Assembly: GCF_003018115.1 (NCBI RefSeq)
Contig: NZ_CP027457.1
DNA from: Escherichia coli
GTDB taxonomy: Bacteria; Pseudomonadota; Gammaproteobacteria; Enterobacterales; Enterobacteriaceae
Reading direction: 5' to 3' (one strand)
Length of the DNA: 64,000 nucleotides
Every line of letters starts with the position of its first letter. Position 1 is the first letter of the stretch. A program made the position numbers. Positions 24,001 to 30,000 of the stretch are shown in pieces.

Positions 24001-27000
24001 ACAACTTCTTCTGTTTTATAAGTATGTATATTATATGGGGTATATGCTTTATTAATAGTATAGTGAAACAATTCGTTATCCACACATACTCCGTCAGAGT
24101 GAACTTCAAATGCACCAGGCGAAAGAATTGCCAGGCCAGTATTAAGCTTAAGTGCTGGGGAAAACAAATTAAATAACATGAGCTGGATAGTAGGGCAATT
24201 GTTCTTCCCAGAAACATTTAAAAAATTTAAGCTTTCGCTCTTCTTTATTATGGGGAATAAACTTCTAATATCGGATGTGTTCTCAGTATCAATGCGAGTT
24301 ATTTTATTATTGTCCAGCCTTAAACTTTTGATAGATGAAAGATAAGTCAGGAAATGAAGGTTTATTTTTTCCAACTGATTGTTAGCAGCGTTTAATGTCT
24401 GAATATTGCAGAAGTTGCTATAAAACATTTTAATTTCAGAAAGCAAGTTGTTGTTGATAAGTAACGTATTCAAGTTGGGAAATAAGGCATTGTGTAAACT
24501 TGTTAGTTTATTATGGGATAGATCCAGCAGTAAGAGTTCTTCTTTATTTCCTGCTATAATATCAGTTAATTGATTATGGCTGAGATTCAGGTATTGCAGC
24601 CATTCGCAAGATTCTAATTGCACAAACTCTAGCTGATTATGTGCCGCACTAAAATAAGTAATTGATGAAAGCTTATCTATATCAATATTTCTGAGGAAAT
24701 TATTATTCATAGATATATGTGTAATGCTTACATTTCTGCCTTGAGGGAAATTTATTGACTCAAGAGCATTACTATTCAGACTAAGCTTTACGAGTCTATC
24801 GTAGTTGGTTGCATCAAAATATGTGAGTTGGTTATTATCAAGATTGATAGAGGTGAAGTTTTGCAGCCCTGGTGGTTGAGTAGTTAAATTAAGTCCTGAT
24901 AAATCAATGTCATTCTGTTTCGACAAAAAAGCACAGCTTATCCTTTCAGCGGCTTCGTTGCGACATTCCGGACGATGGATTTCACCTGTAAGTATACGTT
25001 CTGCTTTCCATTTATTTAATTCGAGCATCCAGTTAAGTTCATTTTTTTCTGGATGTTGCTGTATGGATTGTGGATTTATTTTATTAAATATTGAAGGGAA
25101 TTTCATAACAGCTCCGTAGTAATACAATGTTTTTCTGATTTATCACCCTTGATAAATCAGGATGTGTTTTATAGCTCTGTTGTAAAGGACTGGCTTAACC
25201 AATTATTGGATGTTGGACCATAACCTAAGGAAGATTTATCCTCATTATAAATATAATAACAGATGGGTGTGCCCGTTGGGTCCTTGAGCCCCGAGGGAGA
25301 GGATAGAGAAGATGAATTTGACTTATAGTCACCAACCCCGTACATGCGACGCACAGGCAGAATAGCTTTTAATTCTGCGTCAGAAAATATTGTTTCTTCT
25401 TCTATTAAGGTATACTCTCTGGAATAATATTTGGATCTATAACGAATAGACATTGAGTCATTGTCTTTTATATAATTACCTTCGGAGTTATCGCTTACTT
25501 CTACAAGATGTTCATCACTGGTATCGATATTTGTGATTGCCAGATTATAAGATAAATCAATGGTCACTTCATTAGTGTCATCAATTATATTTCTTACTGC
25601 AGTCCAGTACTGCATTTGTGCAAGTGGATCATTGTTGATGCCGTTAACTAATAAATGCCAAAGATGTTTTGATGATATTAGTTGATCAATATCATTGATT
25701 GGCAATAAATTGTTATTGCTTAAGTTTAAATATTCAAGTTTTGTAGTGGTTTTGGTGTTTAAATGTGCAATATGGTTGTCGTTTAAAGTGATTGTTTTCA
25801 TCCTGGGATGATTGTGTAATATAAGGTCAGTGATCATATTGTGATGGGCACTTAACTCAATCAGAGACTCTTGCCGGGAGACATCCAGCGATGCTAGCTT
25901 GTTATAATCAAGATTAAGAAATTTCAGTTTATAACTATCAGAAATATTAATTTTTTTTAGGTTATTATTTTGCGCTTCCAGATTAACCAATGAATGCTGA
26001 TTTTTTAAATCTAAACTTTCTAGATTGTTATGATCAATATAAATGTTTTCCAGATTTGATTCATTTGGAAAGGTTATCGTTTTAATTTTATTAAAGCTGA
26101 GGTTGATATTGACGAGACTAGCATTGTCAGCAAAGTCAAGACAAGTTAGACAATTGTTTTCCAGATTTAACGTATTAACTGTCGAAGGGATAGGCGGCAA
26201 CTCACTCAAATCAAGATATGACAAATCAAGAGATGCCATGTTCGAATTGTAAGCTTCTTTAATTCGCTCCACGGCAATTGCTCTTTCTTCACCATTATTA
26301 AGCGACTTATTACCCCATTGTTCTAGTCGTTCACAAAAATTGCTGGAGATGGTTTCTTTGTTAGGTAATGCGTTATTAAGTTGATAACTGGCATTATTTT
26401 TTATACAAGCTGTATTAATATTGGTCATAATCACTCATCAATAAATATTATAATAAGATGTCCCCGGAGGGTATGGAATAATATTAATTGAGGTGAATGA
26501 CCAGAAATATCAAAAATTGCTCATTTTTACTTAAGGAGTCATACAGCAGCACTTAAATCAAAAACCAGCCCAGAGAAGGGCTGGTCAGGAGAGAATGTTA
26601 GAACTGATAGGTAATGCCCGTTGCGACGATGTTATCGGTGCGAATATCTACGGCACGGGTAAAGTCGCTTTCATCAATCAGGTTGATTTTATAATCAACA
26701 TAGGTCGACATATTTTTGTTGAAGAAATACGTCGCACCAACGTCGATATACTCAATCATGTCCTGGTCGCCGTAGCGGCCCAGATCTCTGCCTTTCGATT
26801 TCAGGTAAGCGAGTGAGGGGCGCAAGCCGAAGTCGAATTGATATTGCGCCACCACTTCAAAACTTTGTGCTTTGTTAGAAATATAACCATCGCCATAGGT
26901 GGTCATGTTTAATGTTTCAGCGTAATTAGCTGCAAAGTAGATGTTGTTGGCATCATATTTTATACCTGTAGCCCACAGTTCTGCATTCTTACCGGAGGCA

Positions 27001-30000
27001 TTGAGAGGATTAGCAGCGGCTCTTTCCTGCGCATTTGTCCGATCGGATTTGGTATATACCGCACCGATACCAAAGCCATCATAAACATAAGTTGAGGAGA
27101 TACCGAAACCGTCACCGTTGGCACGCGTGTAGTCAGCACCATAAAGATGACTGTTGTCAGTACGTTCATTTTTGCCTTGATATTGCGCGGCAAAGTTCAG
27201 CCCTTCAATTAAGCCAAAGAAATCGTAGTTGCGATAGGTTGCTACACCGGTGGTACGGTATGTCATGAAGACATCTTTCTGACTCCAGGTATCGCCACCA
27301 AATTCTGGCAACATATCGGTCCATGAACCAATGTCATAGCCGACACCGTAGTTACGACCATAGTCCAGAGAGCCAAATTCACTAATTTTTAAACCAGCAT
27401 AGGCCAGACGGGTCTTGTTGCCGCGCGAGCCGTTGGCTTCATCGTTATAGCCTTTAAAATCATATTCCCAGTGACCAAAACCAATCATTTGATCATTGAT
27501 TTGCGTTTCTCCTTTAAAGCCGAGACGGGCATAAGTTTTATCACCATCGTCACGCTTATCATCAGTAAAATAACGTAGAGCGGTAACCTTGCCATAAAGG
27601 TTGAGTTTATTACCATCCTTGTTATAGACTTCGGCAGCGTGTGCTACGTTCGCAGCTAACAAACCAGTTACAACCACCGCAACTATTTTTAATTTCATTT
27701 AACAGAATCCTTTTAATTATCGTTAAACGTATTTTCTAAACGAATTTTAAACGGCGTCATTTATAAATGACATACTGTTTTTAAAATAGAATGGTGATTA
27801 AAAACAATGAGAAAAATAGATGAAATAATATTATTTATCGATATGTGATCGAAGTCGAAATGAGATATAAGGTGAATTACTGGTATTCGAAATTTATTTT
27901 TTAATATTGTCGGAATTTATCTGATTAACTGCCAGGCCGTAGACCCGGCAATTATTTTAACCACGACGTGTCGCCAGCCAGCAGAGCAGAGAACCGCCGC
28001 AGACCATTAGCGCGCCTTGCCAGAACGAGAACGACAGCGGGGCGCTGAGCAGCACGGCTGCAAGCGCTGAGGAAAGTACGGGCGTAAAATACGAACCTAC
28101 CGCCATTATGGTGACGTTACCATGCAATATACCGACATTCCATGCAGCATAAGCAAATCCTAAGGTAAATGCAGCAGAGATGAGTTTAATCATGACGGGC
28201 GTGCTAAATACCATTTCTGGTTGTGGCGTGAGAAAATAGTAAATCCACAGACTTGCTCCCGTTAGCAGGACAAAAACGGTAATTCCGTTAAATCCGCGTG
28301 CGTATTTATTCGTTACTGTGCAGTAGGCTGCCCAGATAAACGCACCAATGAACGCCAGGAAATAACTCAATGGGCTGGTGGTGATATTATTGATGATTTC
28401 ATCATAATGTAACCCATTGTCACCGCCTAACACCCAGCAGACGCCGACGAGGGCTAATAATAATCCTGGTACAATCAGCCAGTTGGTTTTCTGACCATTA
28501 AACAGAATGGCAAAGAGAATTGTCAGGCTGGGCCACAGATAGTTCACCATACCCACTTCAATCGCCTGATGACGGGTCGCCGCATACCCTAAGGAAAGCG
28601 CCAGACAGATTTCATAGCTGACGAATAACAGACTCCCGGCGAGTAAATAGCCTTTCGGGATTTGCCGAATACGCGGAAATCCAACCGTGAAGATTAACAG
28701 CAGCCCGCTTAATGAATAGATAGCAGCTGCGCCGCCGACCGGGCCGAGCCCCTCACTGACACCGCGAATCAATCCTACCATCGTGCTCCACAGGACGATC
28801 GCTATCAGCCCTATGAGCGTTGCTTTTTGTCGTGTCATGCTCGCTGTTTTGTCTCTTTTGCCGTTAAAAATTAAGCTGAATTTTATAGCATTTTTTTAAC
28901 TGGCCTGTCAGGCAGTGGTGCGTTTTTCTACCGCTATTGAGGTAGGTCAATTTGCGCAGGCGGATTATTTTGTGGCAAACAGATGTTCTTTTTGATTTCG
29001 CGCAAAAAGATTCAGAATTTTACTGTTAGTTTCCTCGCGCAGTAATACCCCTGAAAAAAGAGGAAAGCAATGGACGTCAGTCGCAGACAATTTTTTAAAA
29101 TCTGCGCGGGCGGTATGGCTGGAACAACAGTAGCGGCATTGGGCTTTGCCCCGAAGCAAGCACTGGCTCAGGCGCGAAACTACAAATTATTACGCGCTAA
29201 AGAGATCCGTAACACCTGCACATACTGTTCCGTAGGTTGCGGGCTATTGATGTATAGCCTGGGTGATGGCGCTAAAAACGCCAGAGAAGCGATTTATCAC
29301 ATTGAAGGTGACCCGGATCATCCGGTAAGCCGTGGTGCGCTGTGTCCGAAAGGGGCCGGTTTGCTGGATTACGTCAACAGCGAAAACCGTCTGCGCTACC
29401 CGGAATATCGTGCGCCAGGTTCTGACAAATGGCAGCGCATTAGCTGGGAAGAAGCATTCTCCCGTATTGCGAAGCTGATGAAAGCTGACCGTGACGCTAA
29501 CTTTATTGAAAAGAACGAGCAGGGCGTAACGGTAAACCGTTGGCTTTCTACCGGTATGCTGTGTGCTTCCGGTGCCAGCAACGAAACCGGGATGCTGACG
29601 CAGAAATTTGCCCGCTCCCTCGGGATGCTGGCGGTAGACAACCAGGCACGCGTCTGACACGGACCAACGGTAGCAAGTCTTGCTCCAACATTTGGTCGCG
29701 GTGCGATGACCAACCACTGGGTGGATATCAAAAACGCTAACGTCGTAATGGTAATGGGCGGTAACGCTGCTGAAGCGCATCCCGTCGGTTTCCGCTGGGC
29801 GATGGAAGCGAAAAACAACAACGATGCAACCTTGATCGTTGTCGATCCCCGTTTTACGCGTACCGCTTCTGTAGCGGATATTTACGCACCTATTCGTTCC
29901 GGTACGGACATTACGTTCCTGTCTGGCGTTTTGCGCTACCTGATCGAAAACAACAAAATCAACGCCGAATATGTTAAGCATTACACTAACGCCAGCTTGC

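Follow-up and report, generated by a model that had tools for sequence, protein, structure and literature searches.

The window (the whole stretch of Escherichia coli DNA analysed, 64,000 nucleotides in length) carries an uninterrupted porin gene beside yddG, preceded by a putative promoter, a leader and a perfect 16-bp palindrome. The features of the locus, by position in the window, are:

25877-27414, no strand assigned: segment absent from K-12 (BLAST of K-12 against the window; the junction is visible in the alignment)
26563-26586, minus strand: terminator-like hairpin followed by a T-run, 12 nt past the porin stop codon (terminator scan)
26598-27698, minus strand: porin gene, an uninterrupted ORF of 366 aa that adjoins yddG and appears to be the positional orthologue of ompD
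27636-27698, minus strand: signal peptide, codons 1-21 (the mature chains of solved porins align from residue 22)
27708-27712, minus strand: Shine-Dalgarno sequence AAGGA, 9 nt 5' of the ATG (upstream alignment)
27756-27771, minus strand: perfect 16-bp palindrome GTCATTTATAAATGAC (exact match), at -73 to -58 from the ATG at 27698
27771, minus strand: predicted transcription start G, giving a 73-nt 5'UTR (homology with the Salmonella ompD leader)
27778-27783, minus strand: predicted -10 hexamer TAAAAA at -12 to -7 (same hexamer at the same distance in Salmonella)
27802-27807, minus strand: predicted -35 hexamer TTGTTT, separated from the -10 hexamer by 18 nt (comparison of 19 aligned upstream regions)
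27844-27859, no strand assigned: CRP-like site TTCGACTTCGATCACA, one half of which (TCACA) is perfect; its centre is at about -80.5 relative to the predicted start

The first-pass annotation had described a full-length porin of the OmpC/PhoE family. The gene is indeed full length, its ORF of 366 aa being intact and matched end to end by Pfam Porin_1 (PF00267; model positions 1-337, 446.5 bits against a cut-off of 23.7). The OmpC part of the family label stands, with a score of 493.6 against the cut-off of 484 for the NCBIfam 'porin OmpC' subfamily (NF007841), and the PhoE part does not: the PhoE equivalog model (NF007544) gives 456.9 bits against a cut-off of 599, which rules out PhoE identity. 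The OmpF equivalog is likewise not reached (457.1, cut-off 583). Solved OmpC/OmpK36 structures align over their full mature chains with residues 22-366, the mature protein begins AEVYNK and the C-terminus reads ...YQF, ending in the aromatic residue Phe. Full-length coverage of the family model, a signal peptide, the mature N-terminus and the C-terminal Phe are thus all present, as expected of a general bacterial porin, and in strain F9792 the gene is annotated as 'porin OmpC'. A response to phosphate limitation, at which the first-pass annotation had hinted, finds little to recommend it, the upstream region holding a single Pho-box-like half (ATGTCAT) without a direct repeat and the protein falling below the PhoE cut-off. 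The terminator-like hairpin past the stop codon suggests that the porin forms a monocistronic unit.

In the window, as in 30 related loci of six genera, yddG lies upstream of the porin on the same strand, and an intact gene syntenic with yddG is present in E. albertii, Citrobacter, Salmonella, Enterobacter, Lelliottia and Intestinirhabdus. About 170 bp upstream of the porin align colinearly with the orthologues (19 upstream regions), and promoter, leader, Shine-Dalgarno sequence and signal peptide are alignable across the genera; the AAGG block is invariant in all aligned orthologues and forms part of AAGGAUU in most leaders. A metagenomic porin that is 85% identical (L094) was left out because of its different leader and context. 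Given the synteny with yddG, the signal peptide and the alignable promoter and leader, the gene can be regarded as the positional orthologue of Salmonella, Citrobacter and Enterobacter ompD. The protein is 71% identical to Salmonella OmpD and 77% identical to the syntenic porin of C. koseri. Salmonella enterica ompD (STM1572) also lies downstream of yddG and has the same Shine-Dalgarno sequence, and the signal peptide of the window porin resembles that of OmpD (MKLKLVAVAVTSLLAAGVVNA); the intergenic spacer is about 520 bp in Salmonella and 258 bp in the window. Salmonella OmpD, however, is 78% identical to NmpC/Lc, the porin of lambdoid prophages (DLP12), which usually passes for the E. coli counterpart of OmpD. 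NmpC, like the window porin, is a member of the OmpC subfamily, and the two are 66-67% identical. It has another signal peptide and lies in a prophage; lacking yddG as a neighbour, it does not qualify as the positional orthologue. Of an OmpD orthologue one would also expect regulation by cAMP-CRP and, through the early coding region, by the sRNAs MicC, RybB, InvR and SdsR; of these, a CRP-like half-site is what was seen in the window. In the Enterobacter literature, the yddG-adjacent porin is called ompD (PMC11874173).

In K-12, a 1.5-kb deletion takes the 3' two-thirds of the porin gene and the 5' part of the neighbouring leucine-rich-repeat (LRR) gene, joining porin codon ~95 to the interior of the latter. 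Only yddL (b1472), annotated as 'porin, missing C-terminus', is found there in the K-12 strains MG1655 and XL1-Blue. From the promoter through the leader and palindrome to codon ~95 it differs from the window at a single aligned position, whereas its reading frame ends after a few out-of-frame codons within the LRR-gene sequence, 25877-27414 being missing; yddL is a 5' deletion remnant of the window's porin gene. The earlier statement that K-12 lost a functional porin here is borne out by this internal deletion, by the intact, yddG-syntenic gene in six other taxa and by its occurrence as a whole gene in about 1100 of 5426 complete E. coli genomes (~20%).

The 5'UTR of Salmonella ompD has been given as -69 to -1 (PMC3333887). 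The base at -69 (G2432 of the Salmonella locus L084) is the G of GCCATTGACAAAC and has the palindrome's first G, G27771, as its counterpart in the alignment. When the two species are compared (TAAAAATAGTCTG against TAAAAACAGTATG), the distance from TAAAAA to the G is identical. The two promoters share one layout, a -35 hexamer followed by an 18-nt spacer, TAAAAA, 6 nt and the G; the -35 hexamer is TTGAAC in Salmonella and Citrobacter, with the spacer length of the window. Upstream of it, GATCACA is conserved in Salmonella and is the most conserved block across genera in the upstream alignment. We read TTCGACTTCGATCACA as a match to the CRP consensus TGTGA-N6-TCACA, and take it as a candidate site only. 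Based on the alignment with Salmonella -69 and the same -10 spacing, the E. coli porin mRNA would begin with G27771 (position 1,546,101 on the minus strand of K-12 NC_000913.3), and the palindrome, of which this is the first base, would form +1 to +16 of the mRNA. A consensus scan gives an alternative promoter (ATGTCA, 18-nt spacer, TAAAAT; 27773-27744) in which the palindrome would sit at -35. Neither yddL nor any coordinate of the form 15460xx/15461xx is listed in the supplements to Cappable-seq, SMRT-Cappable-seq or Kim 2012.

The palindrome itself is exact, as the first-pass annotation had claimed. It lies 58-73 nt upstream of the ATG and extends no further. The window contains five perfect palindromes of at least 16 bp against 1.3 expected from local shuffles, and GTCATTTATAAATGAC is the sole intergenic one among them; when the 258-bp intergenic region (27.5% GC) is shuffled, 1.8% of the shuffles contain a perfect palindrome of 16 bp. 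It is unusual for its spacer, although a window of 64 kb should hold about one of this kind. A second copy with up to 3 mismatches was not found within the 64-kb window, and an Rfam scan of 26300-28100 returned only a chance miRNA match (E = 0.35). Lying on the strand of yddG, 186 nt past the stop codon of that gene, the palindrome might be taken for a terminator or attenuator of yddG, or alternatively for a recombination or mobile-element scar. Both are very improbable. The sequence is AT-rich, has no real loop and was not reported by the terminator scan, and the absence of a T-run after it speaks against a yddG terminator; a scar is opposed by the lack of flanking repeats and of other copies and by the colinearity of the entire spacer with other genera, and neither origin has a credible Rfam match.

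In the predicted transcript, the palindrome would fold into a 6-bp stem (GUCAUU with AAUGAC) closed by a 4-nt UAUA loop, which is present in both the MFE and the centroid structures. Its energy is -3.3 kcal/mol and the probability that nt 1-6 are paired is 0.94, a value reached by 1% of shuffles; the whole E. coli leader has no folding advantage over shuffled sequences (z = -0.59). Folding of 20 leaders, those of 19 orthologues and of the window, gives paired nucleotides at positions 1-6 in every case, and the mean pairing has a sharp peak at the predicted start (offset 0), where it is about 0.9; at most other offsets it is about 0.25. The 3' partner of the 5' end is located at +11 to +16 in Escherichia, at +26 to +32 in Citrobacter and Salmonella, and in an inserted GUGGC/AUGGC, at about +39 to +43, in Enterobacter and Lelliottia; the consensus helices of the latter two groups begin at nt 1. 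Palindromy is absent from the homologous sequence in Salmonella, Citrobacter and Enterobacter, where the 5'-terminal pairing is kept by other means. The transcript 5' end is thus base-paired in Salmonella ompD as in the window, but through a long hairpin (+1 to +32, about -10 kcal/mol) in the former and a short, local one (+1 to +16) in the latter, in which the ancestral 3' arm CAATGG (Salmonella ompD) has become AATTCG. The hairpins of Salmonella, Citrobacter and Lelliottia reach about -10 to -16 kcal/mol, and that of E. coli is weaker.

Between E. coli and E. albertii, 1 of 12 stem nucleotides, 2 of 4 loop nucleotides and 13 of the 57 in the rest of the UTR differ. The substitution A15G, present in E. 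albertii and in an O157-type E. coli allele (about 294 genomes, with the porin intact), breaks the DNA dyad and keeps the RNA pairing as U2.G15. The one pair-breaking variant seen, T5C, comes from a strain in which only a remnant of the porin is left. No pair has changed on both sides in Escherichia, in Citrobacter/Salmonella or in Enterobacter/Lelliottia, the changes within each clade being one-sided and wobble-compatible only; the comparative support consequently consists of conservation and partner switching rather than classical covariation.

We lean towards the interpretation that the palindrome is a 5'-terminal protective hairpin of the porin mRNA and not a regulator site. Less likely, though not negligible, is an origin by chance, in which a very AT-rich leader gave rise to a palindrome of no function once the long 5' hairpin of the ancestor had decayed in Escherichia. 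Against this reading stand the rarity of such a palindrome in the spacer, or of such 5' pairing, in shuffles (1-2%), a 5' end that is paired in every orthologue despite three different partners, and a stem that, in the comparison of E. coli with E. albertii, has diverged less than the loop and the remaining UTR. Chance would agree with the roughly 1.3 perfect palindromes of this length expected per window, with the weakness of the stem (-3.3 kcal/mol) and with the lack of compensatory double changes. It would also agree with the promoter and palindrome being unchanged in K-12, where the porin gene is dead, and recent conservation therefore says little.

The first-pass annotation had proposed a promoter site for a dimeric regulator. 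The palindrome appears, however, to lie downstream of the -10 and -35 hexamers, from the transcription start onwards, and would therefore be transcribed. Moreover, its dyad symmetry is not kept where the porin is functional: A15G breaks it in the O157-type genomes and in E. albertii, and the sequence is non-palindromic in Salmonella, Citrobacter and Enterobacter, whereas the nearby presumed protein site GATCACA is conserved. A DNA operator, occupied by a repressor over +1 to +16 or overlapping the alternative -35, is thus unlikely, and a second copy is also missing from the window. What such an operator would explain better is the perfection of the dyad (8+8 bp) up to its centre, the loop bases being self-complementary in both Escherichia species (TATA in E. 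coli, TGCA in E. albertii), for which an RNA hairpin has no need; a location over the start site would suit a repressor, and the promoter from the consensus scan uses the left arm of the palindrome as its -35. Compared by eye with the consensus sequences of CRP, FNR, Fur, PhoB, TyrR, ArgR, NsrR and LexA, the palindrome appears to offer a half-site or a wrong spacing at best. An operator confined to Escherichia, at which a dimeric repressor bound to +1 to +16 silences the OmpD-type porin and the RNA hairpin is a by-product, is quite improbable; should it hold, repression would be partly relieved in the O157-type allele with A15G.

For the protective hairpin, the following mechanism can be envisaged. 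The porin would be transcribed alone from an activator-type sigma-70 promoter (TTGTTT, 18-nt spacer, TAAAAA), with the CRP-like site about 80 bp upstream as part of the layout. With transcription from G27771, the palindrome would correspond in the DNA to a stem-loop at the 5' extremity of the mRNA, whose paired terminus would withhold a single-stranded end from RppH and the 5'-end sensor of RNase E. Since both would be denied such an end, the porin mRNA may be longer-lived, in the manner of ompA; this effect on stability is proposed by analogy. The E. coli ompA mRNA, a long-lived transcript, likewise encodes an outer-membrane protein and has a hairpin at its extreme 5' end, although the two hairpins have no sequence relationship and the stem of ompA is longer and stronger. 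The 5'-terminal stem-loop of ompA, and also of papA, is credited to Emory, Bouvet and Belasco (1992) in PMC3997798, where 5' secondary structures are described as stabilising mRNA because RppH and RNase E require single-stranded 5' ends. For ompD, a 5'UTR with 'tight secondary structure' and an mRNA half-life of more than 10 min have been reported (PMC3333887).

The practical value of these observations lies mainly in annotation. Roughly one in five complete E. coli genomes, O157:H7 included, gives the yddG-adjacent porin the generic label 'porin OmpC'. The porin repertoire bears on antibiotic entry, phage and colicin sensitivity and surface antigens, and it is therefore useful to know which strains possess an intact additional porin. 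A dyad near a gene may mark the start of a transcript rather than a site for a protein. A hairpin at the 5' end is as such an ordinary feature; a 5' end kept paired through three partner segments in three clades would provide a modest example, open to experiment, of selection for protecting the 5' end of an mRNA.

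The porin gene adjoining yddG is intact, as proposed in the first-pass annotation. The features considered are as follows.

26598..27698, minus strand: porin ORF of 366 codons, uninterrupted (ORF call)
27957..28838, minus strand, as the porin: yddG, its upstream neighbour
23853-25127 and 25169-26434, minus strand: tandem leucine-rich-repeat (LRR) genes of the EspR1/type III effector kind, adjoining the porin gene
27756-27771, minus strand: 16-bp perfect palindrome GTCATTTATAAATGAC (exact match), 58-73 nt upstream of the porin ATG

In a profile search the porin matched the Pfam Porin_1 model over its full length, its residues 22-366 can be aligned along the entire mature chains of OmpC/OmpK36 of known structure, and a terminator scan identified a terminator-like hairpin with a T-run 3' of the stop codon. 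The protein scores above the NCBIfam cut-off for the 'porin OmpC' subfamily and below the equivalog cut-offs for PhoE and OmpF; the earlier hint of a PhoE relationship is thus not supported. The two EspR1-like genes lie downstream, and fdnGHI on the opposite strand. The fdnG frame is split by an in-frame TGA at 29655-29657 (+) into ORFs 29070-29657 and 29706-32117; this TGA encodes the selenocysteine of formate dehydrogenase-N, and RefSeq annotates fdnG as one 3048-nt CDS.

The K-12 counterpart is yddL, annotated as a porin without its C-terminus. Alignment of K-12 with the window revealed one differing position from the end of yddG through the promoter, the palindrome and the first ~95 codons, after which the K-12 sequence continues inside the LRR gene, window 25877-27414 being absent there. 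BLAST comparison showed 24910-25550 to be absent from K-12 as well as 25877-27414, yddK/yddJ being a deleted hybrid of the two LRR genes. The suggestion that K-12 lost a functional porin here is therefore borne out, an internal deletion having left the yddL remnant. Three states of the locus were seen in a survey of 5426 complete E. coli genomes: the whole porin gene is present in about 1100, O157:H7 among them, the promoter and leader are kept in 4270, and in the remaining genomes narU is joined directly to yddG. Strains with the intact porin include O157:H7 Sakai/EDL933 and F9792.

A porin immediately 3' of yddG also occurs in E. albertii (92% identity to the window porin) and in Citrobacter, Salmonella, Enterobacter, Lelliottia and Intestinirhabdus (68-77% identity); the Salmonella and Enterobacter gene at this position is ompD. 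The ~170 bp preceding the ATG are colinear across E. coli, E. albertii and these five genera, and the signal peptide resembles that of OmpD. The shared position, the colinear upstream DNA and the signal peptide indicate that the window porin is the positional orthologue of ompD, and the synteny and upstream alignment across genera likewise indicate that the K-12 state is a derived deletion. The gene is already annotated; its orthology to ompD is under-appreciated. As a caveat, Salmonella OmpD is 71% identical to the window porin and 78% to the prophage porin NmpC/Lc, so that NmpC, the usual E. coli 'ompD homologue', is closer in sequence yet not the positional orthologue; either the syntenic porin evolved more rapidly in Escherichia, or NmpC stems from the capture of an OmpD-like gene. 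A metagenome contig (L094, 810-1907) encodes a porin 85% identical to the window porin, from which it differs in signal peptide, leader and neighbour (DrpB-like); a close paralogue thus exists elsewhere.

According to a paper on SdsR the 5'UTR of Salmonella ompD spans -69 to -1 (PMC3333887); in an S. enterica sequence with the ompD ATG at 2501, the -69 position corresponds to G2432, the G of GCCATTGACAAAC. In the multi-genus alignment this G shares a column with G27771, the first palindrome base, whose K-12 counterpart is position 1,546,101 of NC_000913.3 (minus strand); the palindrome occupies 1,546,086-1,546,101 there. The promoter geometry is identical in the two species, with the order TTGAAC, 18 nt, TAAAAA, TAGTCT, G in Salmonella and TTGTTT, 18 nt, TAAAAA, CAGTAT, G in the E. 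coli window. Unless the start site has moved in Escherichia, the palindrome would therefore be transcribed, as +1..+16 of the porin mRNA, and would not be upstream promoter DNA. GATCACA, located ~80 bp ahead of the putative start in E. coli and Salmonella, is more strongly conserved among six genera than any other upstream block; it lies in window 27844-27859, centred about -80.5 (Salmonella -81.5), and we take it to resemble a CRP half-site. Salmonella ompD has been reported as cAMP-CRP dependent, and the CRP-like half-site would fit this dependence. Between it and the putative -35 lies a second perfect palindrome of 14 bp, AAATAATATTATTT (27823-27836), palindromic in none of the other genera aligned. 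The 5'UTR carries three CGTTTA direct repeats (minus strand; 27753-27748, 27742-27737 and 27729-27724, at intervals of 11 and 13 nt); E. albertii retains them in part, and a single copy is present in Salmonella and Citrobacter.

The palindrome, confirmed exactly where it had been placed upstream of the ATG, is by itself only mildly surprising. Its symmetry stops at 16 bp, the flanks not extending it, and shuffling the 258-bp, 27.5% GC spacer yields one of such size in 1.8% of cases. Five perfect palindromes of at least 16 bp were observed in the 64-kb window against about 1.3 expected, this being the sole intergenic one. Three others of 16 bp (294-309, 5845-5860 and 46224-46239) overlap long ORFs, one spanning the ORF start codon, and two of them, CCTTTTCATGAAAAGG and CCATTTCATGAAATGG, share the core TTTCATGAAA. 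The longest, the 26-bp ATATTCAGAAAACGTTTTCTGAATAT (7871-7896), begins a 174-aa ORF without a Pfam match that follows a gene (3652-7845; region 3652-8370) for a 1397-aa Rhs protein with a C-terminal Ntox16 toxin domain; this ORF is presumably the immunity gene.

When the porin leader is folded as RNA, the minimum-energy structure and the centroid structure each begin with the hairpin GUCAUU-UAUA-AAUGAC; the probability that nt 1-6 are paired is 0.94, which 1% of shuffles attain. The first 48 nt from the aligned start were folded for 19 orthologues and the window's own leader, and nt 1-6 are predicted to be paired in every one. When the assumed 5' end was slid from -40 to +30, mean predicted pairing peaked sharply at offset 0 (about 0.9 vs about 0.25 at most other offsets). 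The 3' partner is CAAUGGU (+26..+32) in Citrobacter/Salmonella, an inserted GUGGC/AUGGC (about +39..+43) in Enterobacter/Lelliottia, where the +26..+32-type partner is mutated, and AAUGAC (+11..+16) in Escherichia, where the CAAUGGU-type partner is lost too. These three clade-specific ways of pairing the 5' end speak for selection acting on the pairing as such. They also weigh against the palindrome having no function, a reading that we hold possible though rather unlikely and that draws on the weakness of the E. coli stem (-3.3 kcal/mol) and on the number of such palindromes expected by chance.

The first-pass annotation had viewed the palindrome as a dimeric regulator site in the promoter, which is probably wrong, given its alignment with +1..+16 and the natural variants. 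The O157-type allele (about 294 genomes with intact porin) and E. albertii read GTCATTT..AAATGGC; this change (A15G, numbered from the first palindrome base) destroys the DNA dyad and leaves a U.G pair in RNA. A single change observed to break a pair, T5C, occurs in a strain that had been left with a porin remnant. The stem differs between E. coli and E. albertii at 1/12 positions, the loop at 2/4 and the remainder of the UTR at 13/57, and the homologous segment is palindromic in no genus other than Escherichia. The variants, the stem conservation and the absence of the dyad from other genera favour an RNA stem-loop over a DNA operator, which we consider improbable. An operator would account for the self-complementarity of the four loop bases, TATA in E. 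coli and TGCA in E. albertii, a symmetry for which an RNA hairpin has no need, and a consensus scan gave an alternative promoter (ATGTCA, 18 nt, TAAAAT; 27773..27744) that would place the left dyad arm at -35. Such 9-of-12 promoter matches are common in the AT-rich spacer (9 vs 4.6 expected). Other readings are very improbable.

A 5'-terminal mRNA hairpin is, on balance, somewhat favoured. A confident call is argued against by the weak hairpin, the self-complementary loop, the absence of changes on both sides of a pair among the Escherichia, Citrobacter/Salmonella and Enterobacter/Lelliottia leaders compared, and the lack of any E. coli transcription start record for the porin or yddL in the literature and published data searched.

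The Salmonella ompD 5'UTR is described as tightly structured and its mRNA as long-lived, the half-life being more than 10 min (PMC3333887). Secondary structure at the 5' end is known to stabilise mRNAs, since RppH and RNase E both require that end to be single-stranded (PMC3997798). The porin mRNA may thus start at the first G of the palindrome, with +1..+16 folding into a 5'-terminal stem-loop, and the paired end would stabilise the message by withholding a single-stranded end from RppH/RNase E. The leaders of ompA and papA are the classical cases of such stabilising 5' structure. If the hairpin reading holds, to which we give slightly better than even chances, the palindrome would be a new example of an established type of element, the stabilising 5' mRNA hairpin.
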